Shown piece by piece: positions 37,212 through 57,825 of a DNA stretch of 64,000 nucleotides. Each line of letters begins with the position of its first letter. Position 1 is the stretch's first letter. A program made the translations under genes and the position numbers. This DNA is from Lachnospiraceae bacterium (GTDB taxonomy: Bacteria > Bacillota > Clostridia > Lachnospirales > Lachnospiraceae), in assembly GCA_016283775.1 (NCBI GenBank), contig JAEENL010000175.1:30766-94765 (forward strand). Reading direction: 5' to 3'. The notes under the pieces are model-generated. The model was not told the DNA's origin, made no database searches, and saw only the letters and a program-made list of their open reading frames with translations.

Positions 37212-37252
37212 ACACTTCGTCATCTGCATTGAACAGACAAAAGGAGAAAATT

Positions 37253-41191: not shown

Positions 41192-41210
41192 AACTGAAAA
41201 CAGCAGATCG

Positions 41211-41504: not shown

Positions 41505-41518
41505 TGTAATCGATTGCA
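41505..41518. promoter_or_regulatory. LacI/CcpA-type operator candidate TGTAATCGATTGCA
   Basis: Matches 13 of 14 positions of the TGWAANCGNTNWCA consensus and is near-palindromic. It is one of four AAnCGATT motifs in 41378-41516. Confidence 0.4.
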
Positions 41519-41595
41519 CAATTTTCATTTTGGGTTTATGATAAGTTTAGAATTAAAAGACAGTTTCTGAAAACTTATATGAACAGGGAGAATTT

Positions 41596-43644
41596 ATGAA
41601 ATATACAAGGGGAAAAAGGAGAACGGCTGCGCTTGCAGTTGCGATACTCACAGTATCTCTCCTCACTTCGGGGTGCGCATCCGGGGATACCGGAAAAAAC
41701 ATCTCCGAGAGTACACCGACTAACATAGCAACACCGACCGCAAGCCTTCCGACTTCGGCGCCGACACCTGAAGCAACGCCTGAAGTCACAAAGGCGGCAG
41801 TGATCCCGGAATGGAGCGCGGAAGAGCTTATGCTTGCGGATTTCATGCTCTATCGCGTGGATTGCGCGTCCCAGGAACGTGAAAGTTTTCCCGAAGGCAT
41901 CGTAGCAGGACTTTGTCAGACCGTTTCCGATATGCCGTATGGCGAAGACCCGGGAACACATCTCACCTGGGGCTACAGACCGGAAAGATCCGTGATCTCC
42001 GCGCCCGATTCTCTCGGAGAAGGGCTCACCGCATATAAATGGGTCATTGACAGAGAAAGCGAGGATATCGCCAAGGCGGAGATACGGTACGATTTTACGG
42101 TGCCTGTGGGAACATACACTGTAACGCTCGGCTTTTACAATCCGTTCGGAGTGAGAAAGATCGACGTTGACTGTGAAGACACACACTGCGTTTCGGGTGA
42201 AAAGATCCTGCGCTATCTGGAAAATGAAAAAACCTTTGACGTCGAGGTCACTGACGGTGAGCTGAACTTAAGAGTGTACAACGCGGACGCCATGAATTTC
42301 ATGGATACACCGATCTTAAGCTATATAAACATAGCCATTGAGCCGGAATACACAAGAGACCTTCTTGAAGCCGCGGTCAGCGCGATGACGGTGGAAAACG
42401 CCGGGGAGATATATACCACTGCTTCCGCAGAGGCATATCTTGACAGTCTGGAAAAGGCAAAGTCGTTCTTAAACGGCGACAACTCCGGTGAAAACGCCAT
42501 CAAACTCAGATTCAATAATCTTAGGGAGAGTTTTAAAATGCTTACAGAGAAGAACAAATATTCATCATTCCGTCCGGGCGCCGTCTGGACAGATACGGAG
42601 AATACGCCCATACAGGCTCACGGCGGCCAGGTACAGCAGCTTGAGATACCCGATCCCGAAACGGGAAAGACCGTTACCAAGTGGGTCTGGGTAGGTGAAG
42701 ACAAGACACACGGCTATCGCGGAGGCGTATGCGCATATACCTCGGATGACCTTTACAACTGGCAGTTTGAAGGCATCATCATGAGAAACGTACCTTCGAG
42801 GCACTCCCTTGAAGCTGAGGTGTATTTTAAAGAACTCTACAAAGATTACACTTCCGAACAGCTTGACAGCGTAGCGCTTGCACTTGACGCCGAGCGCGCA
42901 GTCATCGAGCGTCCGAAGCTCATCTACAACGAAAAGAACAAGCAGTACGTCCTCTGGTTCCATGCGGACGGCCCCACGGCCACCAGCGACAGTAACTATG
43001 CGGCGGCCTGCGCGGGAGTTGCCGTGAGCGACACACCTTTCGGACCTTACCGTTTTGTAGGAAGATACAGACTGAACACCTGCCCGCCCGATCAGGAGGA
43101 CAAGCACCCCCAGAGCAAGGGAATGGCGCGTGACATGAACCTGTTCAAGGATACCGACGGCACAGCATATATCATCTATTCCAGCGAGGAAAACCTTACG
43201 CTGTATATTTCAAAGCTGAACGATGATTATACCTATCTTGCGACTCCTCCGGAAACGGCAGTATACGGGAAAGATTTCATAAGGCTTTTCCCCGGCGCGC
43301 AGAGAGAAGCGCCCGCCCTTTTCCTCAAGGACGGAAAATATTATCTCATGACTTCCGGCTGCACCGGATGGGCGCCCAACCAGGCAAGATATTATGTTTC
43401 CGATTCCGTGATGGGCGAATGGGTATCAAAGGGTGATCCCTGTGTGGGCGATGACAACCGCACCACCTTCGAGTCCCAGAGCACATGCATTTTCCGCGAT
43501 GTGAACAGCGGCACATGGATCTATATGGGAGACAGATGGTTCGCGGACACGCTGAACGACTCCAGATATGTATGGCTCCCCATCGTTTTCAAGGAAAACG
43601 GAGACATGGAGATATCTTTCGTAAACGAATGGACATTACAGTAA
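41596..43644 (+). CDS. Lipoprotein: malectin/CBM-like + helical linker + GH43 domain (GH43_24 exo-beta-1,3-galactanase-like)
   Basis: Lipobox LLTSGCASG. The N-terminal beta-sandwich has YDFTVPVGTYTVTLGFYNP. The catalytic part has PIQAHGGQV, WFHADG, ARDMNLFKDTDGTAYIIYSSEEN and REAPALFLKDGKYYLMTSGCTGW. The subfamily call is from memory. Confidence 0.7.
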   Translation: MKYTRGKRRTAALAVAILTVSLLTSGCASGDTGKNISESTPTNIATPTASLPTSAPTPEATPEVTKAAVIPEWSAEELMLADFMLYRVDCASQERESFPEGIVAGLCQTVSDMPYGEDPGTHLTWGYRPERSVISAPDSLGEGLTAYKWVIDRESEDIAKAEIRYDFTVPVGTYTVTLGFYNPFGVRKIDVDCEDTHCVSGEKILRYLENEKTFDVEVTDGELNLRVYNADAMNFMDTPILSYINIAIEPEYTRDLLEAAVSAMTVENAGEIYTTASAEAYLDSLEKAKSFLNGDNSGENAIKLRFNNLRESFKMLTEKNKYSSFRPGAVWTDTENTPIQAHGGQVQQLEIPDPETGKTVTKWVWVGEDKTHGYRGGVCAYTSDDLYNWQFEGIIMRNVPSRHSLEAEVYFKELYKDYTSEQLDSVALALDAERAVIERPKLIYNEKNKQYVLWFHADGPTATSDSNYAAACAGVAVSDTPFGPYRFVGRYRLNTCPPDQEDKHPQSKGMARDMNLFKDTDGTAYIIYSSEENLTLYISKLNDDYTYLATPPETAVYGKDFIRLFPGAQREAPALFLKDGKYYLMTSGCTGWAPNQARYYVSDSVMGEWVSKGDPCVGDDNRTTFESQSTCIFRDVNSGTWIYMGDRWFADTLNDSRYVWLPIVFKENGDMEISFVNEWTLQ

Positions 43645-43687
43645 CTCACATCACGACAGCAGTGTAAAGTGGAGTGCGAAACTAAAG

Positions 43688-46594
43688 ATGACAAATCCTT
43701 TTAAAAGTCCTTTTATAAATAAAGCCTTAGCGCTGACTCTGGCGGCAGTCCTTGTATTGCCTCTCGCATCTGCGGATGCGTCCCCCCGCGGCAATGACGA
43801 CAGCCGCCCGGATATCAGCGCAATGGTGCACAATGCCGACAGTTACAGCGTTTATATGGCTGAGCACAGCGGCGCGGCAGAGCCCGATGTGGAGATAAAA
43901 CTCTCCGGCGACGGATTCATCAAAGCTTCCGAGGATTTTGAGGTCCTCGATTCTTATGAAGGCAGGAGCGGAAAAAGCCTTTTCACAAAAGAAGAAGGCT
44001 CCGTCACATACAGTTTTGACGTTCCCGAGACCGGTCTCTACAGCATCCGCCTCACATATTATCCCGTAAAGGGAAAGAACAACACGATAGAGCGTAAGGT
44101 CTACATAAACGACGAGATCCCGTTTGACGGTTCGCAGTACATTGAATTTTCGAGGATATGGACAAACGCGGAGCAGATCTTACGAGACTCGAGAGACAAT
44201 GACATCCGTCCGAGCCAGAAAGAAGCTCCCGAATGGATCACATCTTTCATGAAAGACAGCAACGGATATGTGACCGGGGCGTACAAGTATTACCTTGAAA
44301 AGGGTCCGAACACCGTAACGCTCGTATCCGTAAAAGAGCCGATGGTGATAGGAGAGATAGCTCTCACAAAGGAGACAATGCTCCCGACCTATGCGGAATA
44401 TGACGCGGCAAACCGCGCAGACGGCTTTTCGGAGATACAGAACGCAGAGATAAAGATACAGGGCGAGGAAGCGATCTTAAAATCCGACTCCACACTCTAC
44501 CCCATACCCGACAGAACGTCACCGCTCACAGAGCCTTACAATGCCTCAAAGACACGTCTCAACGTGATCGGAGGAACAAACTGGAAGCTTGTGGGACAGT
44601 GGATAACCTGGGAATTTGACGCTCCCGAGGATGGTCTGTACAGGATAATGGTAAAGTACAGACAGAACAAAAACACCGGCGTTACCGTCTGCCGCTCGCT
44701 GGAGATAGACGGCGCGACGCCGTTCAGAGAAGCGGAAGAGTTCTACTTCTACTACGAGAACGCATGGCAGATGTCAGTGCTCGGAAACGGCAGCAATCCA
44801 TATTATTTCAGACTTTCCAAAGGAAAACACCGCCTGACCTTTCGTGTCGGACTTGGTCAGGATCTTGCGGACATATTGCTTGTGGCAAGTGACAGCGTTG
44901 AAGAACTGAACGCGGCATATCGCGAGCTTCTCATGATCATCGGCAGCACGCCCGATACGATGCGTGATTACCAGCTTGAAGTAAAGTGCCCTGATACTCT
45001 TAAGCGTCTTGCGCGCCAGTACGATGCGGTGAGTAAGCTTAAAGAAATGGTCGGCATATATTCCAAAGGCCGCAAGGGAAGCGAGACACAGGCGATAGAC
45101 AACCTTATAAACCAGCTTGACCGCATGACGAAAAAGCCCGAGAACATCGCCAAACAGTGGACAGCCTTTAAGGACAACATAGTTTCCCTGAGTTCCTGGA
45201 TACTCACGATGAGCGAGCAGCCTCTTGAGATAGACTATATGCTGGTCTGCGGAAAGTCCACCAAAAAGCCGAAAGCAGACCCCGGATTCTTCCAGAGCTT
45301 TTTCCACGAGATAAGGCAGTTTGCAGCAAGCTTTGTGGAGGATTACGACAGCATCGGAGAGATCTATGATGACAAGACTGAAGTGCTCGACGTGTGGATC
45401 CTCGCAGACGGAAGCAACATAACGAGCATGACCGGCGGCGGACGCGATCAGGCGACCGTTATAAAGACTCTTGTGGACAACTACTTTGTTCCTCAGAAGG
45501 GGATACCCGTAAATATCAAGCTTGTAAACAAAGATGTCCTGCTCTCCGCAACGCTTGCCGGAAAAGGACCTGACGTCGCATTGAACGTTGCGGGCATAGA
45601 ACCCATGAACTACGCATTGAGGAACGCGGTCGTAGATCTCACTCAATTTGATGATTTTGAGGATGTAAAGAAGCATTTTTACAGCGAGGCGTTTGACCAG
45701 TTCACTCTTGAAGGCGGTGTTTACGCGCTTCCGCAGACGATGTCCTTCCATGTGATGTTTTACAGAGCGGATATCTTGAGCGAGCTGGGACTTGAAGTTC
45801 CCACCACATGGGACGAGTTTTACAGGTGCCTCTCGGTGATCCAGAAGAACAACATGAACATCGGTATCTTCCCCGACTGGACAACATTTGCGATGTTCCT
45901 GTACCAGCACGGAGGACAGTACTACACCGAAGATTCAAAGCACAGCGCGCTCGACACCGAAAATGCGGTGGCTGCGTTCAAGCAGTGGAGCGGAAATTAT
46001 GTAAATTACGGAATGCCCGTATCGTACGATATGGCAAACCGTTTCCGTACAGGCGAGATGCCTCTTGCGATAGGAGACTACACTCAGTACAACTACCTTT
46101 CGGTATTTGCTCCCGAGATCAAGGGAGACTGGGGATTCACGCTCGTACCCGGATTTGAAAATGAGGACGGCACACTTGACCGCTCGGTTTCCGCATGGGA
46201 GACGGCATGCGTCATAATGGCCACCAGCGACCACAAGAAAGAGGGCTGGGAATTCCTAAAATGGTGGATGGGCGACGACACACAGACAGAGTACGGCAAC
46301 GAGATAGAAAACGTGCTCGGCGTGGCGGGACGAGTTGCGACAGCCAACATGAAAGCACTTGAGAATCTGCCGTGGGCCACAGCCGACTACAGAGAGCTCG
46401 TAAAGCAGCTTTCATGGGTAAAGGCACTTCCTCAGGTGCCCGGCGGATATTTCACCGAACGCCATATAAAGAACGCATTCTACACTGTTTACAACAACAA
46501 CGAAGACCCGCGTGAAACACTTTCTGACTACGTAAAGCAGATCAATTACGAGATAACGAGAAAACGTCTCGAATTTGGCCTGCCTGTCGATTAG
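43688..46594 (+). CDS. Giant extracellular solute-binding protein (tandem CBM-like domains + family-1 SBP)
   Basis: Signal peptide present. Two similar beta-sandwich segments (VTYSFDVPETGLYSIRLTYYP and ITWEFDAPEDGLYRIMVKYRQ). The C-terminal ~450 aa have SBP character (WDEFYRCL, GIFPDW, FKQWSGNYVNYG). Confidence 0.75.
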   Translation: MTNPFKSPFINKALALTLAAVLVLPLASADASPRGNDDSRPDISAMVHNADSYSVYMAEHSGAAEPDVEIKLSGDGFIKASEDFEVLDSYEGRSGKSLFTKEEGSVTYSFDVPETGLYSIRLTYYPVKGKNNTIERKVYINDEIPFDGSQYIEFSRIWTNAEQILRDSRDNDIRPSQKEAPEWITSFMKDSNGYVTGAYKYYLEKGPNTVTLVSVKEPMVIGEIALTKETMLPTYAEYDAANRADGFSEIQNAEIKIQGEEAILKSDSTLYPIPDRTSPLTEPYNASKTRLNVIGGTNWKLVGQWITWEFDAPEDGLYRIMVKYRQNKNTGVTVCRSLEIDGATPFREAEEFYFYYENAWQMSVLGNGSNPYYFRLSKGKHRLTFRVGLGQDLADILLVASDSVEELNAAYRELLMIIGSTPDTMRDYQLEVKCPDTLKRLARQYDAVSKLKEMVGIYSKGRKGSETQAIDNLINQLDRMTKKPENIAKQWTAFKDNIVSLSSWILTMSEQPLEIDYMLVCGKSTKKPKADPGFFQSFFHEIRQFAASFVEDYDSIGEIYDDKTEVLDVWILADGSNITSMTGGGRDQATVIKTLVDNYFVPQKGIPVNIKLVNKDVLLSATLAGKGPDVALNVAGIEPMNYALRNAVVDLTQFDDFEDVKKHFYSEAFDQFTLEGGVYALPQTMSFHVMFYRADILSELGLEVPTTWDEFYRCLSVIQKNNMNIGIFPDWTTFAMFLYQHGGQYYTEDSKHSALDTENAVAAFKQWSGNYVNYGMPVSYDMANRFRTGEMPLAIGDYTQYNYLSVFAPEIKGDWGFTLVPGFENEDGTLDRSVSAWETACVIMATSDHKKEGWEFLKWWMGDDTQTEYGNEIENVLGVAGRVATANMKALENLPWATADYRELVKQLSWVKALPQVPGGYFTERHIKNAFYTVYNNNEDPRETLSDYVKQINYEITRKRLEFGLPVD

Positions 46595-46605
46595 GAGCTT
46601 ACGTA

Positions 46606-47568
46606 ATGGAAAAGGACGTTAAAAAAGAAAAAAGCTCGTGGTCCATTTACCCGCGCTACATGTTAAAGCAGGCAAAGCACGTCTTTAAGGACATGCGAAG
46701 ACATAAGGTCTCATATCTGTTCATGCTGCCTTATTTACTGCTTTTTACCGTGTTCATCCTTGCGCCGGTCATCGTATCCATCGGACTCAGCTTCACCTAC
46801 TTCAACATCCTTGAAAAGCCGAGATTTGTGGGATGGCAGAACTACGTGGATCTGTTCTTTGCGGACGAGGTGTTCCTCACCGCGGTAAAGAACACATTCC
46901 TCTTTGCGGTGGTAACAGGCCCCATCGGCTATTTCATGGCGCTTTTCATTGCGTGGATGATAAACGACATCAGGAACAAAAAGGTGCGCGCTTTTATGAC
47001 ACTTTTGTTCTATGCGCCGACTATCTCCGGACAGGCTTACATCGTGTGGAAATACATCTTTTCCAGCGATACCTACGGCTTTGCAAATGCATGGCTCATG
47101 AAGCTCGGGATCACTTATTCCGCACATCTGTGGTTTGAAGACCAGAAATACATAGTTCCGATCCTCATAATAGTAGTGCTCTGGATGAGCATGGGCACCG
47201 GCTTCCTTTCATTCATTGCCGGTCTCCAGAACGTGGATCAGTCGCTCTACGAAGCAGGATATATGGACGGAATAAAAAACCGTTTCCAGGAACTCTGGTA
47301 CATAACACTTCCTTCGATGAAGCCTCAGCTTATGTTTGGTGCCGTAATGACCATCACTTCGTCATTTGCGATACATGAGCAGCTTGCCGCGCTGGCAGGC
47401 TTCCCCAGCGTAAACTACGCCGCGCATACCGTTGTGTCACATCTTGTGGACTACGGCAGCATCCGTTTTGAAATGGGATATGCATCGGCGATAGCAACGC
47501 TTTTGTTCATCGTCATGATCGTATGCAATAAGGGGATCCAGGCATTGCTCAGAAAGGTAGGGCAGTGA
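46606..47568 (+). CDS. CUT1 sugar ABC transporter permease (MalF-like)
   Basis: 6 TM with an EAA-like loop (LYEAGYMDGIKNRFQELWYITLP). Confidence 0.85.
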   Translation: MEKDVKKEKSSWSIYPRYMLKQAKHVFKDMRRHKVSYLFMLPYLLLFTVFILAPVIVSIGLSFTYFNILEKPRFVGWQNYVDLFFADEVFLTAVKNTFLFAVVTGPIGYFMALFIAWMINDIRNKKVRAFMTLLFYAPTISGQAYIVWKYIFSSDTYGFANAWLMKLGITYSAHLWFEDQKYIVPILIIVVLWMSMGTGFLSFIAGLQNVDQSLYEAGYMDGIKNRFQELWYITLPSMKPQLMFGAVMTITSSFAIHEQLAALAGFPSVNYAAHTVVSHLVDYGSIRFEMGYASAIATLLFIVMIVCNKGIQALLRKVGQ

Positions 47569-47570
47569 TC

Positions 47571-48434
47571 ATGGCATTCAGGCACAAAAAGAGAGCAAAA
47601 CAGACTCACTCCATGGCGGGAAATGCAGTCTGCATAGCGATACTCATAATCATGGGCTCTTTCATGGGACTTCCGCTCGTACTAGCGGTTTGCAATTCCC
47701 TGAAGCCCCTTGAAGAACTTTTTATCTTCCCGCCCAGATTTTTCGTAAGGAACCCAACCGGAAAGAACTTCCACGACATTTTCGTTCTGATGAGCGAATC
47801 GTGGGTGCCTTTCAGCAGATATATCTTCAACACGGTGTTCATCACGCTTTTCGGAACCGCAGGACACCTGTTTGTGGCAAGCCTCTGCGCATATCCTCTG
47901 GCAAAGCACAAGTTCCCCGGAAGGAACCTGATATTCTGGCTGATCGTGACCGCCCTCATGTTTTCGGGGCATGTCACAGCGATCCCGAACTATCTGGTAA
48001 TGGCAAAGCTCAACTGGCTTGACAACTACCTTTCGCTCATTGTACCCGCCATCGTTAAGCCTATGGGACTCTTCCTCATGAAGCAGTTCATGGAGCAGGT
48101 GCCGGATTCACTGATCGAAGCCGCAAAGATAGACGGATCGGGCGAGTTCAGGATATTCTCCACGATCGTGATGCCGTCGGTAAAACCCGCATGGCTCACG
48201 CTCATAATATTCTGCTTCCAGGATCTGTGGAACCTGCAGGGTTCAAACTATATCTACAGTGAGAACTTAAAGACACTGCCTTACGCACTCTCCCAGATAT
48301 CCGCAGCGGGTATCTCAAGAGCCGGAGCTACGGCAGCGGTCGCAGTCATCATGATGATCATACCTATCACGATCTTTATACTGTGCCAGAGCAACATCAT
48401 CGAAACGATGGTATCCTCGGGCATCAAGGAATAG
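47571..48434 (+). CDS. CUT1 sugar ABC transporter permease (MalG-like)
   Basis: EAA loop LIEAAKIDGSGEFRIFSTIVMP. An alternative GTG start at 47565 overlaps the upstream stop. Confidence 0.85.
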   Translation: MAFRHKKRAKQTHSMAGNAVCIAILIIMGSFMGLPLVLAVCNSLKPLEELFIFPPRFFVRNPTGKNFHDIFVLMSESWVPFSRYIFNTVFITLFGTAGHLFVASLCAYPLAKHKFPGRNLIFWLIVTALMFSGHVTAIPNYLVMAKLNWLDNYLSLIVPAIVKPMGLFLMKQFMEQVPDSLIEAAKIDGSGEFRIFSTIVMPSVKPAWLTLIIFCFQDLWNLQGSNYIYSENLKTLPYALSQISAAGISRAGATAAVAVIMMIIPITIFILCQSNIIETMVSSGIKE

Positions 48435-48443
48435 GGGGTGCGC

Positions 48444-49919
48444 ATGAGAAAAAGTCTGTTTTTCGCAGCTGTCGCATCGGCGTCACTCCTGCTGATACAG
48501 CCTGTCGCAGCGCATGCGGAAGTGCCGTATGAGACCTACAGCTACAACTATTACCAGGAAACGGTGGCTCAGCCTCACGTTTACCTGTATGACGAGACTT
48601 ACACCTTTGACGGGTTTGAGACTCCCGTGAAGAACCCGCAGGACATGTTTGTAAAGGATGATGTCTTTTATATCGCGGACACGGGTAATTCCAGGATAGT
48701 AAAGACAAACAGCGAAGGTGAGCTCCTTTTGGAAATAAAGAGCGCATCGTCCGAAGAGGATCTGCTTTCAAAACCGCAGGGCGTCTTTGTTACCGATGAA
48801 GACCACATCTATGTGGCGGACAGCGGAAACGGCCGTCTTGTCGAATATGATGAAAACGGCGGATATATAAGGCAGATAGGACGTCCCGTAACGGATCTCA
48901 TTGAGAAAGATGTGGCTTACACGCCGCAAAAGGTCGTTGTGGACAAAGACGGCAGGATCTATGTCACCGCTTACGGTATCAACATGGGCCTTCTTGAGTT
49001 CAACATCGAGGGTGATTTCCAGAGCTTCATGGGCGCCGTACAGGTTTCGGTATCACCGTTTGAGTACATCTGGAAGCACTATTTTTCCACAAAGGAACAG
49101 CAGGCCAGAATGGCGACCATCGTTCCCACGGAGTACAGCAACATCTTTGTGGACAAGGACAACTTCATCTACGCGACCATCAACAACCTGACAAACGCGG
49201 ATTATGTGAACGGTGCGGATGCCATAAGAAGGCTGAACCCCACCGGAAAAGACATTCTCCGCCGCCTCGGTCACTATTCGATAATCGGAGATCTCTACAA
49301 GTCCGAGGATAACAAGTGGTCATCGTTCATAGACGTTGCGGCGACCGATTACGGCTGCTATTTCATCCTGGACAACGCAAACGGCAAGGTCTTTGGCTAT
49401 GATTACGACGGAAACTCACTTTTCGTTTTCGGAAGGAACGGAAACCGCGAAGGGAACGTGATGAACGCTGTCGCGATAGGCACAAACTCCGACGCTTCGA
49501 CGATCTACATTTTGGATTATCAGTTAAACAGCATACTTACATTTTCCATCACCGATTACGGAAGGCACCTGCTCGACGCGCTGAGACTGAACGACACCGG
49601 AGATACGGAAGGGTCGATCGCCGAATGGCGTGAGGTGCTGAGGCTCAACAGCAACAACGAATTTGCCTATACGGGTCTCGGAAAGAGCTTCCTTGCAAAC
49701 GGCGAGTACAAGAAGGCGATGGAATACTTCAAGAACGGAAATAACAAGAAATATTACTCAAAGGCACTGTACTACCACCGTAAAGAACTCATGGAAAAGA
49801 ACTTCGGGAAGATCATGGCCGTGCTTGCCGCGATCGTGCTGATCCCTGTGGTCGTAGTGACGTTCAAAAAGATAAAGAGATGGGCGGGTGAAGTGAAATG
49901 CGCTATGTCAAAGAATTAA
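48444..49919 (+). CDS. Secreted NHL-repeat beta-propeller + TPR protein with C-terminal TM anchor
   Basis: Signal peptide present. NHL-like repeats (FYIADTGNSRIVK, IYVADSGNGRLVEYD, RIYVTAYG). TPR-like EWREVLRLNSNNEFAYTGLGKSFLANGEYKKAMEYF. C-terminal TM IMAVLAAIVLIPVVVV. Confidence 0.7.
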   Translation: MRKSLFFAAVASASLLLIQPVAAHAEVPYETYSYNYYQETVAQPHVYLYDETYTFDGFETPVKNPQDMFVKDDVFYIADTGNSRIVKTNSEGELLLEIKSASSEEDLLSKPQGVFVTDEDHIYVADSGNGRLVEYDENGGYIRQIGRPVTDLIEKDVAYTPQKVVVDKDGRIYVTAYGINMGLLEFNIEGDFQSFMGAVQVSVSPFEYIWKHYFSTKEQQARMATIVPTEYSNIFVDKDNFIYATINNLTNADYVNGADAIRRLNPTGKDILRRLGHYSIIGDLYKSEDNKWSSFIDVAATDYGCYFILDNANGKVFGYDYDGNSLFVFGRNGNREGNVMNAVAIGTNSDASTIYILDYQLNSILTFSITDYGRHLLDALRLNDTGDTEGSIAEWREVLRLNSNNEFAYTGLGKSFLANGEYKKAMEYFKNGNNKKYYSKALYYHRKELMEKNFGKIMAVLAAIVLIPVVVVTFKKIKRWAGEVKCAMSKN

Positions 49920-50515
49920 AATACGGCTTTCATATCCTGTTCCATCCGTTTGACGGATTTTGGCAGCTGAAGCGTGAGCACAAGGGCTCCCTTGCGGCTG
50001 CGCTCACCTTTGTCGGCATAGTGATCATGCTCACCACCTTCGAAAAGCAGACGACGGGATTTCTCTTTAACGCCGTACGTTTAAAAGACGTGAACGTGGT
50101 GGTGGATATTCTTACGGTTACCATGATCTATGTGCTCTGGTGCGTAGCAAACTGGTGCCTCACATCGCTCATGGACGGCGAGGGAAACATGAAGGACATC
50201 TTCATCGCGATGGGTTATGCACTGCTCCCGATGATCCTTATAAGGCTTCCCATGATCGCTCTGTCTCTCGGAATAACCGCCGAGGAAGGGACATTCTACT
50301 ATGTCCTCAACTCTGTGAGCTACATCTGGACCGGCATACTGGTCTTTTTCGGAACAATGGTCACACACCAGTATTCCTTCAAGAAAACAGTGCTGACCTG
50401 TATCTGCACCGTGGTGGGAATGGGGATCATAATGTTCATAGGACTCCTGTTCTTTTCGGTAATACAGCAGATGATCACGTTTTTTACAACGATCTACAAG
50501 GAGATCAGGTTTTAG
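49898..50515 (+). CDS. YIP1-like polytopic membrane protein
   Basis: 205 aa with five TM helices and a short N-terminus (HPFDGFWQLK) typical of Yip1-domain proteins. Overlaps the NHL gene by 22 nt. Confidence 0.6.
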   Translation: MRYVKELKYGFHILFHPFDGFWQLKREHKGSLAAALTFVGIVIMLTTFEKQTTGFLFNAVRLKDVNVVVDILTVTMIYVLWCVANWCLTSLMDGEGNMKDIFIAMGYALLPMILIRLPMIALSLGITAEEGTFYYVLNSVSYIWTGILVFFGTMVTHQYSFKKTVLTCICTVVGMGIIMFIGLLFFSVIQQMITFFTTIYKEIRF

Positions 50516-50529
50516 GAAAGGGGTAAAAC

Positions 50530-53076
50530 ATGAAAAAAGGGCATATCATCACGGCCTGTCTTTTGATCATAGCGCTGCTCTTTTCCCTGGTTCCCGCTGT
50601 TCCGGCGAGAGCCGATGAGGTTCCTTCCGGTATTCCAGGGAAGATGAAACAGGTGGCGGAAAACGACAGCCTGATCCTTTACCTTGATGAAGAAGAGACA
50701 AGCATTGCAGTCTATGTGAAAGAAAACGGGGATGTATGGTTCAGCAATCCCGTTGACGCGGATTCAGACACTTCCGCATCGGATTATCAGAAAAACCAGC
50801 TGAAAGCCCAGCTCTTTGTGCGTTATTTCAATGAAAACGTGCAGGAAGCAACTATGGACAACTACAGCCAGTGCATAAAGGACGGACAGTTTGAGATCGA
50901 GCCGCTTTCCGACGGCGTAAAGATCACTTACACCATCGGAGAGGGCATATCAAAGCTTCTCCTTCCGCAGGTCATCAGCGTGGAGCGTATGGAACAGTTT
51001 GCTTCAAAGCTGGAATCCTCGCAGTCGAAAAAGCTTTTGAGAAACTATACGAAATATGAGCTCGCAACAGTGAAGGAATCCGACAAAAAGGACCTTCTCG
51101 AAAACTATCCGGGGCTTGAAAACCACAGCATTTACGTGCTGAAGAGCAGCGTAAAGGATTACATCAAAGAGGAGCTTTCGGGCTATATCCAGGAAGCGGG
51201 CTACACCTGGGAAGATTACGATTTTGATCTTACCGACAACGGTTACCAGACAGCCGACACAAAGCCGTGGTTCGTCATTCCGCTCACCTACCGCCTTGAG
51301 GGAAGAAACCTCATAGCCGAGGTGGATCCGGAAGAGATCACCTATAACGAAGAAGGCTATTATCCTGTCGAAGTGGAGATGCTTCCCTATTTCGGAGCCG
51401 CAAAGAAAGGCGAGGAAGGATACATATTCGTTCCCGACGGAAGCGGCGCGCTGATCTACAACGATACAAAGAGCAACATAGCATATAACGCAAGGGTGTA
51501 CGGACAGGATGTCACGATGAACGTTCTGTCGACCGTAAAGTCACAGATAGACCAGTCCGTTACCATAAAGCTTCCGGTGTTCGGAATGAAAAAAGGTGAT
51601 ACGGCATGGTATGCGGTCATCGAAGACGGTGATGCATATGCCGACATAACCGCATCCACATCGGGACGTGTAAACAATTACAACAACGTCTATGCCGGTT
51701 TTCAGTTCCTTGAATACGGTGTGAGCACGCTAGGCAGCATGGTGGGCTCAAACAGTTTCCAGATGTATTCCTTAAGGGAATTTGACGGCACCTATAAGCT
51801 GCGATTCGGATTCCTTTCGGGTGAAAATGCAGATTATTCGGGAATGGCATGCGCTTACAGGGATTACCTTACCGGAAAGGGTGTCCTTAAGACAAGACTT
51901 ACGGAAGGCTCTGCGCCGTTTTATGTGGAATACATAGGCGCGATCGACAAGAGCGCCACATTCCTCGGCATCAAATACCGCGCAGTGACGCCGGTAACCA
52001 CATATGCCCAGGCAGAAAAGATCACGGACGCGCTGCTCACTGCGGGCGTGAATGACATAAATGTCATATGGTCCGGATGGGCAAATCACGGACTGCACGG
52101 GACTGCGCATACTGAGATCAAAAATGTGGGAAAACTGTCAAACGGAGGAGTTTCGCAGAAAAAATTCCTTTCGGACATGGCAGGAAAAGGGATAGACACA
52201 TATTTCACGGCGGAATACCAGCATGTCTACAGAGATCTTCCGGCAGACGGCTATACGGTACTCGGGTCCGCTCCCAAGTATTTTGACCGCTCCGCGGTTA
52301 AAGAAGCGACATATTACCTTTCAAACAACATGGTCGACTCAAACGACAAGATCGCGCTCATAAAGCCCACACTTGCAGTAAAAGTCACGAATGCGCTCAA
52401 AAAAGCATTTGCGAAGCAGACGGGCGTAGGTTTTAACATCGGAACGATCAGCAGCAATCTCTACACTGACCAGCAGACCGAAAACTATACCGATCGTCAG
52501 CGGGCGCTCCTTTTGAACACGGCCGCCGTAAAGGATCTTTACGACGCCTTCGGGGGAAAGATCATCGCTGACAACGCGAACGCATACATGTTCGGATATG
52601 CGGCAGATATCATAAACGTTCCGCTTGATTCAAACCGTTCAAGGATAATAAGCGAAGCGGTACCGTTTTATGAGATGGTGCTGCACGGCTATGTGGATTT
52701 TGCGGGCGACTGCCTCAATATGACCGATGACTACAACACAACGCTCTTAAAGAGCATAGAATCCGGGGCAGGACTCTATTTCAAGTGGATCTACTCCGAT
52801 AATTCGGTCCTCAAAGAAACAGATTTTGACTCTCTTTATTCGGTCAACTACAAGAGCTGGATCGACCGCGCAACGGAAGATTACGGCACGGTAAACCGGG
52901 TCCTTGGGCCTCTTCGCGGACAGACGATCGTAAAACATGAGATCGTTTCAAAGAAGGTCGTTCGCGTAACGTACGAGAAAGGAACGCAGATTCTGGTGAA
53001 TTACTCAAAGGAAAACGTCACGGTTGACGGACAGACAGTGAACGCCGGAAGTTTTGCGGTGGTGACCGGGAAATGA
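50530..53076 (+). CDS. Large secreted uncharacterised protein (I believe DUF5696-like; unverified)
   Basis: 848 aa with a signal peptide (LFSLVPAVPARADE). No glycoside-hydrolase signature that I recognise. Motifs include YIFVPDGSGALIY and WSGWANHGLHG. Confidence 0.5.
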   Translation: MKKGHIITACLLIIALLFSLVPAVPARADEVPSGIPGKMKQVAENDSLILYLDEEETSIAVYVKENGDVWFSNPVDADSDTSASDYQKNQLKAQLFVRYFNENVQEATMDNYSQCIKDGQFEIEPLSDGVKITYTIGEGISKLLLPQVISVERMEQFASKLESSQSKKLLRNYTKYELATVKESDKKDLLENYPGLENHSIYVLKSSVKDYIKEELSGYIQEAGYTWEDYDFDLTDNGYQTADTKPWFVIPLTYRLEGRNLIAEVDPEEITYNEEGYYPVEVEMLPYFGAAKKGEEGYIFVPDGSGALIYNDTKSNIAYNARVYGQDVTMNVLSTVKSQIDQSVTIKLPVFGMKKGDTAWYAVIEDGDAYADITASTSGRVNNYNNVYAGFQFLEYGVSTLGSMVGSNSFQMYSLREFDGTYKLRFGFLSGENADYSGMACAYRDYLTGKGVLKTRLTEGSAPFYVEYIGAIDKSATFLGIKYRAVTPVTTYAQAEKITDALLTAGVNDINVIWSGWANHGLHGTAHTEIKNVGKLSNGGVSQKKFLSDMAGKGIDTYFTAEYQHVYRDLPADGYTVLGSAPKYFDRSAVKEATYYLSNNMVDSNDKIALIKPTLAVKVTNALKKAFAKQTGVGFNIGTISSNLYTDQQTENYTDRQRALLLNTAAVKDLYDAFGGKIIADNANAYMFGYAADIINVPLDSNRSRIISEAVPFYEMVLHGYVDFAGDCLNMTDDYNTTLLKSIESGAGLYFKWIYSDNSVLKETDFDSLYSVNYKSWIDRATEDYGTVNRVLGPLRGQTIVKHEIVSKKVVRVTYEKGTQILVNYSKENVTVDGQTVNAGSFAVVTGK

Positions 53077-54017
53077 AAAACAAAGGCTATTTCAAAAAAG
53101 CAAACGGAAAATGGAGACTTTCGCTCCTGGGACGTGAGGCTCTGGCGGGGATAGGCTTTGCGCTTCCTTTCCTCATCGGTTTCTTTGGGCTGTTCCTTCC
53201 CATGATCGTAAAGTCGGTGAGCTACAGCTTCAGCAATATGAGTGTCGAGAGCACGGGATATGTGCTGACAAGGGCGGAGAAGAACGGTCTTGAGCATTAT
53301 ATCAGGGCGCTCACGATAGACCCCGATTTCAACAGGATGCTGTTACAGGCGATCGTCGACATGTTCACAAAAGTGCCGCTCGTCATCATTTTCAGCTTCT
53401 TTATGGCAAACATGCTGAACCAGAAGTTCCACGGGCGCGCCATAGCAAGATCGATCCTGTTTCTACCTGTTATCCTGACTTCGGGTGTCGTTCTCGGACT
53501 TGAGTCTTCGGACCTTCTCCTTACGACGCTCAGCCCTGCGGAAATGTCAAACACGGATTTCAGCACAATACTTAATATTTCCGCTCTGCTCCTTAAATAC
53601 ACCGATCTCCCGGCATCTGCGATCAATTTCCTCGCAAGTGCCGTAAACGGGATATATAACATCATCATTGCGTCGGGCGTGCAGATCCTGATCTTCCTTG
53701 CAGGCTTGCAATCGATCAGCCCGTCGCTTTACGAGGCTTCCTCCATGGAGGGCGCGACAGCGTGGGAGAACTTCTGGAAGATCACATTCCCGATGATCAG
53801 CCCTCTGATCCTCGTAAACAGCATCTATACGATCATCGACTCATTTACGAGTGAGACCAACGCCATCATGAAGGACATCAAAGACACGATCTTCGGCGAG
53901 GTAAAATACGGTCTCGGCTCTGCGATGGCCTGGATCTATTTCATTTGCATCGGCGTGATACTGCTGATCGTAGGCGGCATCATCTCGAGACATGTATTCT
54001 ACAATGATGAACGATAG
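53073..54017 (+). CDS. CUT1 sugar ABC transporter permease (MalF-like), second system
   Basis: 6 TM with EAA-like LYEASSMEGATAWENFWKITFP. The ATGA overlaps the upstream stop. Confidence 0.8.
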   Translation: MKNKGYFKKANGKWRLSLLGREALAGIGFALPFLIGFFGLFLPMIVKSVSYSFSNMSVESTGYVLTRAEKNGLEHYIRALTIDPDFNRMLLQAIVDMFTKVPLVIIFSFFMANMLNQKFHGRAIARSILFLPVILTSGVVLGLESSDLLLTTLSPAEMSNTDFSTILNISALLLKYTDLPASAINFLASAVNGIYNIIIASGVQILIFLAGLQSISPSLYEASSMEGATAWENFWKITFPMISPLILVNSIYTIIDSFTSETNAIMKDIKDTIFGEVKYGLGSAMAWIYFICIGVILLIVGGIISRHVFYNDER

Positions 54018-54033
54018 TACGGGAGAGACTCTT

Positions 54034-55005
54034 ATGAAAGCAAGGCCAAAAAATCACGTTCCGCACAGGATCACGGCGGCCAAAGTGGGAAGAGCGCTTT
54101 GGAGCATTGTGCGCGGCGTCATAATCATAGGGATATGTTTCACGATCCTGCAGCCTTTGTTCGTCAAGCTCAGCGTATCGTTCATGAGTGAAAGGGATCT
54201 GTTTGACTCGGGCGTAAAATACATTCCAAAGCATTTTACACTGAACAACTACAGGCTGGCACTGAAAGGAATGGACTACTGGCGTTCGCTGCTCAGGACC
54301 TTCCTTCTGTCGGGCGGAGTGGCTCTCCTTCAGCTCTGCAGCTGCATGCTCGCGGCATATGGGTTTGCGAGATTCCGTTTCCCGTTTAAAAAACTACTGT
54401 TCGCCTGCGTGATCCTCATGCTGATCGTGCCGCCGCAGATAATCATGTTGCCGCTGTTCATGCATTTCAGGTTTTTTGATATCCTCGGGATCATAAAGGC
54501 GGTAAAAGGAGGCCCCATAAGCCTTCTGGACAGCTACTGGCCGTTCGTCATCCAGGCAGTGACCTGCACAGGCTTTAAGAACGGACTGTTTATCTACATG
54601 CTGAGACAGTTCTTCAAGGGGATGCCGAGAGAGCTTGAAGAGGCCGCATTTGTTGACGGCTGCACAAAGCTCAAGACCTTTACAAAGATCATCGTGCCGA
54701 GTTCCGTGCCGATGATGGTGACCATTTTCCTTTTCGGATTTGTATGGCAGTGGATGGATTCCTTCTACACATCACTTTACCTTAAGGGAACAATGGTAAT
54801 ACCTGTGGCTCTCGATTCGCTTGCCGCGTCTGTATACAACGAGTATTCAAATTACGGCGGAAGCATGAATTTCATAAGCCCGGGCTACATTTCGATGATG
54901 AACAATACGGGAACCGTTCTGGCAATGCTCCCGCTCATCGTGCTTTACATCGTCTGCCAGAGATACTTTGTGGAGGGCATCGAGCGCTCCGGTATCGTGG
55001 GATAA
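54034..55005 (+). CDS. CUT1 sugar ABC transporter permease (MalG-like), second system
   Basis: EAA loop LEEAAFVDGCTKLKTFTKIIVP. ATG 54034 follows GGGAGAG; the track start at 53992 overlaps the upstream gene. Confidence 0.8.
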   Translation: MKARPKNHVPHRITAAKVGRALWSIVRGVIIIGICFTILQPLFVKLSVSFMSERDLFDSGVKYIPKHFTLNNYRLALKGMDYWRSLLRTFLLSGGVALLQLCSCMLAAYGFARFRFPFKKLLFACVILMLIVPPQIIMLPLFMHFRFFDILGIIKAVKGGPISLLDSYWPFVIQAVTCTGFKNGLFIYMLRQFFKGMPRELEEAAFVDGCTKLKTFTKIIVPSSVPMMVTIFLFGFVWQWMDSFYTSLYLKGTMVIPVALDSLAASVYNEYSNYGGSMNFISPGYISMMNNTGTVLAMLPLIVLYIVCQRYFVEGIERSGIVG

Positions 55006-55090
55006 TTGCACACGGACCGCCCAAAGGGCAGGACACCACGTGCTTTATTTAATAATTTTTCACCTGCGAAAGCAGAAAAGGAGGTTTTTT

Positions 55091-56605
55091 ATGAAAAACA
55101 CTTTAGGCAAAAGGCTGCTTGCAAGTGCACTTGCTCTTGTAATGGTATTCGCGCTCGCAGCCTGCGGCAATGAAGGCAGTGAGGCTTCGAATACTCCGGC
55201 CGCAAATCCTACAGCTGCCGCAAAGGCGACCGACACACCGGCACCCACAAAAGCAACAGAGCCGGCCGCAACACCCGCAGCAACAGCAACACCCGAACCC
55301 ACACCCGAACCGACTTATGATTTTGGGGGAAGAGTATTCAAGATCGGTTCATATTATGACATGACTCCTTCACCCGACGAAGGCGCTCTTGAAGCAGCTC
55401 TTGCAGACAGGATCGCAGAAGTTGAGTCGAAGTACAACTGCAAGATCGAGTTTGTAAACCTCGGCGGCGACTACGTTGCAGAGTATGTTACAAGCGTACT
55501 TGCAGGCACACCTGTTGTTGATATCGGTTATGTTGTAACCCAGAAGCTCCTTCCTTCACTTATCGAAGGCGGCATCGCTTATCCTTTAAGCCAGCTCAAG
55601 GCTCTCGATCTTTCCGAGTACAAGTGGCGTTCCGACGTTGTCGAGGCAGGTAAGTACAAGGGCGAATATTACGCAATGCTCCTCAAGGATCCCGAGATCC
55701 GTTACGGTATCTTCTGGAACAAGACATTATTCAACAAGTATGGTCTTCCCGATCTCTACACTCTCGTTGACAACGGCCAGTGGACATGGGAGAAATTCCA
55801 GGAGATCGCAGCTCTCGGAAACCAGGATACAGACGGTGACGGCGAGATCGACCTTTACGGCTTCAACGCAAGAGAAAACCTTGCATGGTGCTATCTGTAC
55901 TCCAACGGCGCTTACGTTGCAAACAAGACCAACGCAGGCATCGACATCAACTTAAAGGATCCCAAGGTTGTTGAGGCTCTTACAGGCCTTCAGAATTTCA
56001 CTCAGAACGTTAAGTTCCGTGATGCCATCGACTGGTCCAAAGAGGGCTGGGACAGCTTCATCAAGGATTTCCGTGACGGTAAGTATATGATGTGCCTTGA
56101 GGAGTTCTGGATCTCCTATGCATACCTCAACAAGGCTGACGGCGGTATGACCGACGACTGGGGCTGGGTACCTTTCCCGAAGGGACCTTCCGCAACAGAC
56201 TGGTCATGCTATGGTAAGGAAAATGGCGCACGTTTCATTCTTAACGGCGTTGAGAAGCCTGAGGACGTTGCACTTGTTTACGATCTCATCACAGATCTTG
56301 CAGACACCAACGAAGAGTGGGATGAGCTCATGGAAGACAAGCTTGAGAACTGGTGCGATGATGCCAAGACAGCTGAACTCGTTTCTTACATCTACAACAA
56401 CAAGCTCTCCGTTATCAACGGTATCCAGGGCTTTGGCGATCTGAACGGCGCAGTTAACAACATGGTAAACGAAGTTTCCAAGGGAAGCATGACTCCTCAG
56501 GTAGCACTTGAGACATATCAATCAGCGATCGATGCGGCTATCGCAGATCTCGCAAATCACGATTACAGTGCAGAAATGCAGGAATACAAGGTTGACGAAG
56601 AGTAA
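55091..56605 (+). CDS. Sugar ABC transporter substrate-binding lipoprotein
   Basis: ATG 55091 follows AGGAGG. Lipobox ALAACGNEG, an Ala/Thr/Pro linker and a family-1 SBP body (WTWEKFQEIA, DGDGEIDLYGF). Confidence 0.8.
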   Translation: MKNTLGKRLLASALALVMVFALAACGNEGSEASNTPAANPTAAAKATDTPAPTKATEPAATPAATATPEPTPEPTYDFGGRVFKIGSYYDMTPSPDEGALEAALADRIAEVESKYNCKIEFVNLGGDYVAEYVTSVLAGTPVVDIGYVVTQKLLPSLIEGGIAYPLSQLKALDLSEYKWRSDVVEAGKYKGEYYAMLLKDPEIRYGIFWNKTLFNKYGLPDLYTLVDNGQWTWEKFQEIAALGNQDTDGDGEIDLYGFNARENLAWCYLYSNGAYVANKTNAGIDINLKDPKVVEALTGLQNFTQNVKFRDAIDWSKEGWDSFIKDFRDGKYMMCLEEFWISYAYLNKADGGMTDDWGWVPFPKGPSATDWSCYGKENGARFILNGVEKPEDVALVYDLITDLADTNEEWDELMEDKLENWCDDAKTAELVSYIYNNKLSVINGIQGFGDLNGAVNNMVNEVSKGSMTPQVALETYQSAIDAAIADLANHDYSAEMQEYKVDEE

Positions 56606-56632
56606 TCTTTAAGAACGGACTTAAAACTATCA

Positions 56633-57676
56633 ATGGACAGCGAAAAGAAGATCACAATCTATGACATCGCCAGAGAAGCCGGGGTATCCGCATCGCAGGT
56701 ATCCCGGGCCATCTCGGGCAGGGGATACGTATCGGAGGAAACGCAGGCAAAGATAAGCGAGCTGGTCGAGAAGTACAACTATCGTCCGAACGCCGTTGCC
56801 AGAAACCTCCAGAGAGGCCAGAGCAATACTGTGGGCTTCCTTATTCCGCATGTCTATCAGGAATATTTCCCGCTCGTATACTCGGTTTTTGAAAGGGAAA
56901 TGACCGAAAAAGGTTATGTTACCGTTGTCTTCAACGGTAAGAGCACACCCGCCGACGAGATAAAAAACTTAAATCTCCTTGAGGAACTGAGGGTAGACGC
57001 GGTGGTAATCATCGGCGGAAGTCTTGACTTTGCCGACTGGGAGTCCAGAAAAGATTACGTAGAGGCAATAAAACGCCTGAGCAGGAACATCCCCTGCATT
57101 TTGGGAAACGAAAGGGCGGGAACATTATCCTGTTCCGGAGTGTATGTGAACATCGACAGGGGCGTTGACGACCTTGTAAGACACCTCGCGGAACTGGGAC
57201 ACAAGACCATGGGCATCCTCGGAGGTTTCAGGACCGTCCATCCTTCGTTCCGTCTTCAGGAAAGCCTGAAAAAGAGCGGAAAGAAGTACGGCCTGGAATT
57301 CCGTCCGGAGTGGCAGGTGTTCTCTTCCTACAACTCGCACGATGGTGCGGAGGCGATGAGAAAACTCCTTCAGCAAAAAGAATTGCCGACTGCAGTATGT
57401 TGCATAAACGACGAGATCGCAGTCGGAGCGATGGGCGTTGCAATGGATATGGGAATGCGGATCCCCGAGGATATCGCGTTCACCGGCTATGACGGCGTTG
57501 ACCTGAGCCGTGAATTCCGTCCGCAGCTCACTACCATCCAGATGGATTTTGAAACGATGGGAAAAAAGCTTGCGGAGCTCGCATACAACAGCATCAAGGG
57601 TGATCGTACGATCACCGAGGTGATAGTGGATCCGACGGTCGTGCTGCGTCACAGCACCGAAGGCGGCAAAAAATAA
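56633..57676 (+). CDS. LacI family transcriptional regulator
   Basis: HTH ITIYDIAREAGVSASQVSRAISGRGYVSEETQAKI plus a periplasmic-binding-fold sensor domain. Confidence 0.9.
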   Translation: MDSEKKITIYDIAREAGVSASQVSRAISGRGYVSEETQAKISELVEKYNYRPNAVARNLQRGQSNTVGFLIPHVYQEYFPLVYSVFEREMTEKGYVTVVFNGKSTPADEIKNLNLLEELRVDAVVIIGGSLDFADWESRKDYVEAIKRLSRNIPCILGNERAGTLSCSGVYVNIDRGVDDLVRHLAELGHKTMGILGGFRTVHPSFRLQESLKKSGKKYGLEFRPEWQVFSSYNSHDGAEAMRKLLQQKELPTAVCCINDEIAVGAMGVAMDMGMRIPEDIAFTGYDGVDLSREFRPQLTTIQMDFETMGKKLAELAYNSIKGDRTITEVIVDPTVVLRHSTEGGKK

Positions 57677-57744
57677 AAAATGCGCATATCCTGCGCGATG
57701 AAAATGCTGATTTTACTATTTCTATAGGGTTTCTCCAAAGTAAA

Positions 57745-57825
57745 CGGGGGCGGCTTTGAAGCAGCGTGTAAGCTGTTTCGGGGTCGCCCTCGTTTTTTGT
57801 CGGAACTGTGTTAGAGGCAGTTCCG
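57745..57825. terminator. Terminator region between convergent lacI-type and GH51 genes
   Basis: A 10-bp outer stem (57745-57754 with 57783-57792) is followed by TTTTTT (57793-57798). A second 8-bp hairpin pairs 57801-57808 with 57818-57825. Confidence 0.6.

Follow-up and report, generated by a model that had tools for sequence, protein, structure and literature searches.

Firmicutes dominate fibre degradation in gut and soil, and their glycan uptake is far less understood than the Sus systems of Bacteroidota. Gram-positive polysaccharide-utilisation loci (gpPULs) are defined by genes for a carbohydrate-active enzyme (CAZyme) that lie together with those for a transporter and a regulator of transcription (Sheridan et al. 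2016, PMC5320581). In Bacillus subtilis, importers of the CUT1 type are energised in trans by the multitask ATPase MsmX (PMC7658222, PMC5730181), and the Yip1-family protein YknW modulates how YknXYZ, a transporter of the ATP-binding cassette (ABC) type, is assembled (PMC4887032). The 64-kb stretch of Lachnospiraceae bacterium DNA analysed here (the window) contains a core of nine genes at positions 43688-56605, encoding two substrate-binding proteins (SBPs), four permeases, an NHL/TPR protein, a Yip1-family protein and a DUF5696 protein, and these nine genes are one fixed, widespread Firmicute cassette. The kind of locus is already known, namely a gpPUL-type CUT1 import locus, and in the window a GH43_24-like gene (glycoside hydrolase, GH, family 43), two ABC systems and a LacI gene stand together in one apparent unit. 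In the searchable literature there is no description of this invariant core of nine genes, of the three uncharacterised components within it or of its conservation across classes.

The nine-gene cassette and its conservation

The open reading frame (ORF) map of the window places all nine genes on the forward strand. The first gene (43688-46594) encodes SBP968, a giant SBP of 968 residues with a Pfam SBP_bac_1/8 match over residues 604-873. It is followed by permA (46606-47568), a MalF/UgpA-like transmembrane domain (TMD) with an EAA loop (Pfam BPD_transp_1, 42 bits; NCBIfam GlcT/UgpA-like), and permB (47565-48434), a MalG/UgpE-like TMD with an EAA loop (Pfam, 45 bits; NCBIfam UgpE-like, 102 bits). 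The three middle genes encode a secreted NHL beta-propeller and TPR protein with a C-terminal transmembrane (TM) anchor (48438-49919; Pfam NHL, 53 bits, and TPR), a polytopic Yip1-family membrane protein with 4-5 TM segments (49898-50515; Pfam Yip1, 55.7 bits, cut-off 28.6), and an 848-residue DUF5696 protein (50530-53076; Pfam PF18952, 580 bits, E 5e-174). A second permease pair comprises permC (53073-54017), a divergent MalF-like TMD with an EAA loop (Pfam, 22.8 bits; NCBIfam MalF/UgpA-like), and permD (53992-55005), a MalG/UgpE-like TMD with an EAA loop (Pfam, 51.9 bits; NCBIfam UgpE/MalG-like). The last gene (55091-56605) encodes a small SBP lipoprotein of 504 residues with a Pfam SBP_bac_1 match and the lipobox LAAC.

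The genes are closely coupled, with a junction reading GTGATCATG between permA and permB, a 22-nt overlap between the NHL/TPR and Yip1 genes, and an ATGA overlap between the DUF5696 gene and permC. An initial annotation of the same DNA had described this gene order and tight coupling, which the ORF map and junction sequences bear out, and its domain calls were all recovered by Pfam, permC lying under the curated cut-off (22.8 against 26.4 bits). Its ORF list and coordinates agree with the ORF map except for the small SBP, whose proposed start at 54968 is replaced by the ATG at 55091, which is preceded by an AAGGAGG ribosome-binding site and followed by an N-terminus, MKNTLGKRLLASALALVMVFALAAC, that constitutes a lipoprotein signal. 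With this start the protein has 504 residues, and an 85-nt gap after permD takes the place of an overlap.

Relatives of the DUF5696 protein were collected by a back-translated pattern scan with one genome per species, which yielded at least 595 confirmed loci; the best 80 of these served as the synteny sample, with their ORFs probed by the window's own proteins. All 80 sampled relatives from other species lie within the cassette, and the order SBP968-permA-permB-NHL/TPR-Yip1-DUF5696-permC-permD, on a single strand, is found in every sampled locus with enough flank. Nine components were counted in 55 loci and eight in 15 (fusions or truncation), the remainder being interrupted at contig ends. 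Hosts within Clostridia include Lachnospiraceae (among them Butyrivibrio, Roseburia-like bacteria, Acetatifactor and Anaerotaenia), Oscillospiraceae, Defluviitaleaceae and Clostridiaceae; further hosts, Bacillaceae among them, are Paenibacillus, Cohnella, Lederbergia, Amphibacillus and Marinicrinis. The sole rearrangement concerns the small SBP gene, which follows permD in Clostridia and precedes the giant SBP gene in Bacilli. Between the window and Bacilli orthologues, identity is about 56-62% for permA and permB, 45-50% for permC and permD, 41-44% for SBP968, 40-47% for Yip1, 36-38% for NHL/TPR, 33-35% for DUF5696 and about 29% for the small SBP, the most divergent component. An identical order across two classes at 29-62% identity indicates a single ancient module; the term "composite", under which the genes had first been described, is therefore misleading, while the accompanying statement that similar gene sets occur in Paenibacillus and Clostridia was correct and the synteny of the NHL/Yip1/DUF triad with ABC genes, put forward for survey, is strict in all 80 loci. 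The nearest relatives of the window proteins, at 99-100% identity, come from metagenome-assembled genomes (MAGs) of rumen Lachnospiraceae, and a search of viral contigs returned no relative. The cassette has probably spread through Firmicutes both vertically and horizontally.

The small SBP also varies in copy number. In a Bacillota MAG (L036, 10498-18090) a tandem array of about 5-6 paralogous small-SBP genes follows the cassette, and in two Bacilli loci with a histidine kinase and a response regulator of AraC type (RR-AraC) encoded upstream (L081, 2206-5088; L082, 786-5072), 1-2 additional genes for small SBPs lie before the giant SBP gene. One of the additional proteins in the latter two loci may serve the two-component system as its sensor and have no part in transport.

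The best explanation of the whole, held with moderate confidence, is that the cassette constitutes the core of a gpPUL. In the proposed mechanism, modules of the giant SBP resembling carbohydrate-binding modules (CBMs) would capture a glycan at the cell surface, and the DUF5696 protein, which is probably a retaining glycosidase belonging to a new family, would cut or trim it extracellularly; in the window clade a co-transcribed GH43_24 exo-beta-1,3-galactanase lipoprotein would also act on the glycan. Oligosaccharide products would be passed to both SBPs and imported via the two permease pairs, for which a shared ATPase of the MsmX/MsmK type would supply the energy in trans. The NHL/TPR and Yip1 proteins would form an accessory, embedded in the membrane, by which the extracellular partners are tethered or organised at the transporters, by analogy to YknW in YknXYZ. 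The substrate in the window is likely to be type II arabinogalactan side-chain oligosaccharides; in sister clades the cassette is paired with genes for mannanase, xylanase or alpha-mannosidase. Surface capture, cleavage and dual import are thus the mechanism that we infer, and likewise a physical surface complex. A bolder form of the proposal is put forward only tentatively: NHL/TPR-Yip1 might represent a new class of ABC-importer accessory that assembles a Gram-positive surface "utilisome", in which DUF5696, as founder of a new GH family, and the CBM-bearing giant SBP are docked on two translocators, making the cassette a Firmicute functional counterpart of SusCD that has been duplicated for different plant glycans.

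Transport components and the NHL/TPR-Yip1 pair

EAA-type motifs were read directly in the sequences of all four permeases, and permC, with six predicted TM segments, is present in all loci. Since these loops lie in TMDs of the MalF/UgpA and MalG/UgpE types, each permease pair should dock a dimer of nucleotide-binding domains (NBDs). A six-frame scan for Walker-A...LSGGQ proteins detected no ABC ATPase in the 64-kb window, as had been stated from the initial reading, and no such protein adjoins the cassette in the 80 loci. The missing NBD is consistent with a shared MsmX-type ATPase acting in trans; a 2026 review of glycoside transporters mentions neither Yip1 nor MsmX.

The AlphaFold2 model of SBP968 (pLDDT 75.5) comprises an N-terminal helix, beta-sandwiches at about residues 70-227 and 254-388, a helical bundle at 390-509 and a MalE-type domain. 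In Foldseek searches the MalE-type domain matches SBPs for cello-, sophoro-, cycloisomalto- and malto-oligosaccharides and for cycloalternan, with TM-scores against oligosaccharide SBPs of up to about 0.75 (target-length normalised). This domain dominates the full-length search, which did not identify the N-terminal modules. The two beta-sandwich modules represent an internal duplication, with 36% identity over 59 residues (E 4e-8). Among SBP968 orthologues an N-terminal hydrophobic segment is found in 67/67 and a lipobox in 2/67, suggesting that the protein is probably TM-anchored and not lipidated. The small SBP shows a weak match to the arabino-oligosaccharide SBP 6rjy (3e-9).

The NHL/TPR protein matches Pfam PF01436 with 53.4 bits against a cut-off of 20, and its solved relatives in the PDB comprise NHL domains of TRIM proteins and, from bacteria, the extracellular sensor propeller of the kinase PknD. 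Its orthologues carry a signal peptide, and topology prediction places a C-terminal TM segment in 69 of 71. The match of the Yip1 protein to Pfam PF04893 spans 171 of 173 profile positions, 4-5 TM segments are predicted in its orthologues, and a PDB search returned no solved relative. In several Paenibacillus loci the NHL/TPR domains, the C-terminal TM helix and Yip1 form one polypeptide of 688 residues. A fusion search found PF04893 together with PF01436, in proteins of about 685 residues, in about 118 of the 120 best clusters. The identity of these clusters goes down to 49%, and they represent numerous species of Paenibacillus, Cohnella and Bacillus, some with two copies in a genome. Two fusion genes checked via precomputed Pfam labels are located within the same cassette, with a histidine kinase and RR-AraC upstream. 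The first description of the locus had seen no assigned role in sugar uptake for the three middle genes and had placed Yip1-family proteins mainly in eukaryotic vesicle traffic; YknW gives Yip1 a bacterial precedent as an ABC-transporter accessory (PMC4887032). A literature search on Yip1 with Paenibacillus and on NCBI annotation names returned no relevant paper.

The same proteins could instead constitute a sensor or regulator, the propeller binding glycan or product, in the manner proposed for the NHL sensor domain of PknD, and either gating the transporter or signalling to adjacent regulators, with DUF5696 still acting as an enzyme. The sensor propeller of PknD as the solved bacterial relative, the two-component histidine kinase and RR-AraC or LacI regulators that almost always lie beside the cassette, and the fact that YknW modulates assembly and does not itself transport all favour a regulatory role. 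However, Yip1 has no known signalling output domain, none occurs in the fusion proteins, dedicated regulators are already there, and the gene is placed between transporter genes and translationally coupled. A sensor in place of a scaffold appears unlikely, and the accessory role of NHL/TPR-Yip1 at the transporters is preferred.

The DUF5696 protein and its candidate active site

DUF5696 is a large family, with 3,711 clusters (at 50% identity) at E <= 1e-30. The protein of the window was modelled with AlphaFold2 on a 38-sequence alignment (pLDDT 88.1, pTM 0.83). In the model an N-terminal hydrophobic segment (signal or anchor) is followed by a large beta-sandwich that contains a helical insertion. 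A (beta/alpha)8 barrel starts at about residue 463, and a second beta-sandwich makes up the C-terminal part. Foldseek comparison with the PDB ranked the Zobellia GH129-like 3,6-anhydro-D-galactosidase DagB (5opq; E 9e-31, target-normalised TM-score 0.69) and the Bifidobacterium bifidum GH129 enzyme NagBb (5wzn; E 2e-25, TM-score 0.71) ahead of GH101 endo-alpha-GalNAc-ases (E ~1e-17) and of GH36 alpha-galactosidases and GH31 enzymes (E ~1e-13), all at 8-13% identity. At the sequence level, a single-sequence search of the PDB returned nothing useful and no GH family model of Pfam or NCBIfam matches; with a profile of the family, GH129 proteins rank first among PDB sequences, weakly (5opq, E 0.023; NagBb, E 0.38), in three co-linear segments. 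The Foldseek comparison that had been proposed for the 848-residue protein thus revealed a cryptic glycosidase fold, and sequence and literature searches linked it to no characterised glycoside hydrolase. On the model, DUF5696 appears to possess a cryptic three-domain glycosidase fold of the GH129/GH101/GH36 type, and a conserved Asp lies about where its nucleophile would be expected.

DagB, whose three-domain layout is the same as that of the DUF5696 model, shares with NagBb the nucleophile Asp alone (D486 and D435, respectively); it does not have the acid/base residue of NagBb but is still active, and its authors propose a separate family (PMC5698469). Interpolation between the co-linear HMMER segments maps D486 of DagB to residues 625-659 of DUF5696, a range that includes D647. 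Two sets were used to evaluate conservation: 79 cassette proteins, and 148 representatives obtained by clustering at 50% identity. D647, in the loop after the barrel strand taken as beta4, is retained in 141 of the 148 representatives and 75 of the 79 cassette proteins. Further conserved barrel residues are R656 (145/148), N684 (133/148), D708 (131/148, ~89-91%), N730 (148/148) and E744 (143/148), and the N-terminal domain contributes D303 in a VPDGSG motif (138/148) and D327 (143/148). The stretch roughly equivalent to the acid/base residue E478 of NagBb, placed by interpolation at 681-684, reads D/E/N/S-G-x-N, with D681 in 52/148.

The residue at position 708 of the window protein is encoded by AGC (52651-52653), two changes from an Asp codon; Ser708 is also present in a 99%-identical MAG protein and has arisen independently in a further relative, P0019. 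The substitution could alter or abolish DUF5696 activity in the window lineage. D708 and E709 were considered as a firm acid/base pair, and the assignment was dropped in view of Ser708 in the window protein and the variability of E709.

These observations allow another reading, in which DUF5696 is non-catalytic, in this lineage or generally: a glycan binder or holder with a glycosidase fold would present substrate to the SBPs, and flanking enzymes such as GH43_24 would depolymerise it. The Ser of the window protein at the roughly 90%-conserved D708, the lack of conservation at the acid/base position of NagBb, the Asn found in about 5 of the 148 representatives at each of D303, D327 and D647, and the failure to match any GH family model would all suit such a binder. 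Against it, D647, E744, R656, N730, D303 and D327 are conserved at 93-100% over the 148 representatives, as is typical of an active site; the flanking GH26 and GH10 proteins of Paenibacillus clades have no signal peptides, leaving DUF5696 as the sole extracellular enzyme-like protein; and DagB is active despite not having the NagBb acid/base. A purely binding role is accordingly judged improbable, and DUF5696 is treated below as a candidate glycosidase.

Flanking genes, substrate and relation to known systems

The cassette of the window is preceded by a gene for a GH43_24-type exo-beta-1,3-galactanase lipoprotein (41596-43644, + strand; 682 residues with an N-terminal extension, lipobox LTSGC), which ends 43 nt before SBP968 with no terminator between. 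Its catalytic part has close PDB matches among GH43_24 exo-beta-1,3-galactanases, namely 6eug (1e-63), Ct1,3Gal43A (3vsf, 2e-41) and B. longum Bl1,3Gal (7bys, a galactan 1,3-beta-galactosidase, 5e-41). Upstream of this gene, a 14-bp palindrome, TGTAATCGATTGCA (41505-41518), fits the LacI/CcpA operator consensus and overlaps the -35 element of a promoter-like site found by consensus scan (TGCACA-16-TATGAT, 41515-41542, + strand). The palindrome occurs once in the window, and the identical 14-mer recurs a short way upstream of the GH43_24-like gene of three other loci (L002, L020 and L025), all of which also have a LacI gene downstream, and nowhere else in 82 loci. On the far side, a LacI-family regulator (56633-57676, + strand; Pfam LacI and Peripla_BP_3) is the last gene of the unit and is followed by an intrinsic-terminator-like hairpin of 20 pairs with a T run (57745-57792, + strand), the longest-stemmed site scanned; + strand hits within the unit have stems of 6-8 pairs. 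The promoter-like site itself comes after the terminator-like hairpin (41210-41241) of a preceding GH36 operon. Taken together, the operator/promoter and the flanking hairpins indicate a likely operon consisting of operator/promoter, GH43_24, the nine genes, LacI and terminator. The transcription unit thus probably reaches from about 41505 to 57792, past the limits first assigned to it, and is likely LacI-controlled via the palindromic operator at the promoter. An Rfam scan of the locus detected no riboswitch or leader.

The GH36 operon is a separate apparent unit on the + strand (35018-41191), encoding a TetR regulator, a 497-residue DUF6937+DUF6938 protein, an MFS_2 transporter of the melibiose/glucuronide type and a GH36 alpha-galactosidase; the DUF6937/6938 protein may likewise be a so far uncharacterised enzyme of glycan processing. 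On the opposite strand, convergent with the LacI gene, lies a GH51-like alpha-L-arabinofuranosidase gene (57834-60713; 959 residues with a CBM_4_9 module), whose product has a C-terminal domain interrupted by a 3-keto-disaccharide-hydrolase-like insertion. The GH43_24, GH36 and GH51 neighbours would fit side chains of type II arabinogalactan or of arabinogalactan proteins (AGPs) as substrate. The arabinogalactan originally guessed as substrate gains support from the GH43_24-type gene just upstream in the unit. The cassette as such is not bound to a single glycan, and its clades are paired with differing enzymes.

Across the sample, the genes found downstream of the cassette (72 loci) encode GH26 (13), LacI (6-7, as orthologues of the window regulator), GH53 (5), GH38 (5), GH10 (4), GH35 (2) and GH2 beta-mannosidase (2), and those upstream (61 loci) encode regulators of LacI type (20) and AraC type (15) and GH43 (11, directly upstream and all in Clostridia). 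These differences track the DUF5696 phylogeny. Lachnospiraceae clades are paired with GH43_24, GH53 and LacI; one Paenibacillus clade with an intracellular protein of the GH26 endo-mannanase type (13/18; 6hpf, 3e-84); another clade with RR-AraC and GH10; and a further clade, carrying the NHL-Yip1 fusion, with GH38. Two cassettes are found in several Paenibacillus and Cohnella genomes (L059/L060, L054/L068, L066/L074 and L070/L073; also P0277/P0320 and P0288/P0354). In three of the four sampled pairs the copies come from different clades, with 34-39% DUF5696 identity, and the pair L070/L073 has 62%; the diverged sequences of copies in one genome imply old duplication or independent acquisition. 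A single universal substrate was rejected in favour of clade-specific pairing, the flanks being heterogeneous. In its behaviour the cassette resembles a PUL-type platform that has diversified, with a constant capture-and-import core that is duplicated and re-paired.

That the cassette serves to recycle or remodel the cell's own envelope or exopolysaccharide (EPS) glycans, and not environmental polysaccharide, is very improbable: many EPS-producing Paenibacillus have it, its flanks are heterogeneous and no catabolic precedent is known for NHL/TPR and Yip1 proteins, but the neighbours are plant-glycan catabolic enzymes (GH43_24, GH53, GH26, GH10, GH35, GH36, GH51) and LacI/AraC regulators that respond to sugars, the SBP domain is similar to SBPs for oligosaccharide uptake, and a diversification of substrates would fit the multiple diverged copies in single genomes. 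A chance assembly of two independent CUT1 importers around three functionally unrelated genes, which the two complete sets of SBP and permease pair and the shifted small SBP of Clostridia and Bacilli might suggest, is effectively refuted by the eight-gene order, identical in every locus with enough flank in two classes at 29-62% identity, by overlapping start and stop codons and the NHL-Yip1 fusion inside the same cassette, and by the presence of all 80 sampled DUF5696 relatives in it.

Several points weigh against the proposed gpPUL core and its mechanism. The CBM assignment in SBP968 is based on sub-threshold Pfam matches to CBM35/Golvesin_C in the modules and their homologues. For the window DUF5696 protein, Pfam gives DUF5696 alone (E <= 0.01), with no GH129 match; its best acid/base candidate, position 708, is Ser beside the variable E709; and the suggested catalytic residues come from a model and from conservation. 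The literature search returned no paper on DUF5696/PF18952 and no experiment on any middle-gene protein. Promoter and terminator are consensus matches only, and contacts of NHL/TPR-Yip1 with the transporters or the enzyme are purely inferred. The flanking enzymes are heterogeneous across clades (GH26, GH53, GH38, GH10, GH35, GH2), so that any substrate assignment is tentative.

The remainder of the window is ordinary chromosome, with genes for MurG, DnaX, AddAB, asparagine synthase and GltX. A 6S/SsrS RNA gene (16812-17018, + strand) is the sole Rfam match in the window at the gathering threshold (58.7 bits). At 9569-12740 and 17084-18568, a DUF5711 gene on the - strand overlaps the start of one of two genes for transglutaminase-core surface proteins with bacterial Ig-like domains, and near them are genes for an AMP-binding enzyme that resembles DltA and for an MBOAT acyltransferase.

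If the inferred roles are true, the cassette would provide a new glycoside hydrolase family and, in the propeller-Yip1 protein, a new type of ABC-importer accessory, along with a bacterial function for the Yip1 fold beyond YknW. It would also serve as a genomic marker for Gram-positive PULs, improving the annotation of rumen, gut and soil metagenomes.

Comparison with described systems separates the familiar parts of the cassette from the new ones. The modelled DUF5696 protein resembles GH129, GH129-like and GH101 enzymes in its three domains, in which a distorted beta-sandwich at the N-terminus is followed by a TIM barrel and an Ig-like domain at the C-terminus, and its conserved D647 is a candidate counterpart of their nucleophile. 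It differs from them in its identity of 10-13% and in about 190 extra residues, including the helical insertion in the N-terminal domain. Unlike NagBb, it has Asn/Gly at the roughly placed acid/base position and conserved acids of its own (D303, D327, D708, E744). With YknWXYZ the cassette shares a Yip1-family polytopic membrane protein encoded in an ABC transporter operon (PMC4887032). YknYZ, however, is a MacB-type exporter with a membrane-fusion protein, whereas the partners in the cassette are type-I importers, and the cassette Yip1, unlike YknW, has an extracellular NHL propeller/TPR protein to which it is either coupled or fused. MsmX-powered CUT1 importers likewise have MalF/MalG-type pairs with EAA loops, oligosaccharide SBPs of the cluster type and no NBD gene in the operon, but the cassette stands apart by an SBP of 968 residues that is probably TM-anchored and in which a helical bundle and two CBM-like modules are added, and by two obligatorily linked importers with extra membrane and surface subunits.

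The type II arabinogalactan system of B. longum (Bl1,3Gal, GH43_24, 7bys) has a surface-anchored GH43_24 exo-beta-1,3-galactanase beside oligosaccharide uptake genes, as in the window; it has single importers and is not known to include a DUF5696, NHL/TPR or Yip1 protein. The AGP PULs of Bacteroides (6eug series) also place a surface-anchored GH43_24 enzyme beside uptake genes, with SusCD and without DUF5696, NHL/TPR or Yip1. With the SusCD PULs of Bacteroidota in general the cassette shares an analogous logic, a conserved capture-and-import core that is duplicated, each copy with different enzymes and regulators, whereas the proteins and the envelope architecture are entirely different and show no homology. 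In content the cassette is also like gpPULs, in which a CAZyme gene stands beside those for an ABC sugar importer and a LacI/AraC regulator, with an extracellular enzyme, a lipid- or TM-anchored SBP and several diverged copies per genome for different glycans. The NHL/TPR, Yip1 and DUF5696 proteins are not part of any described gpPUL, and where gpPULs are loosely defined and variable in content, the core of the cassette is rigid, with nine genes and two translocators maintained across classes.

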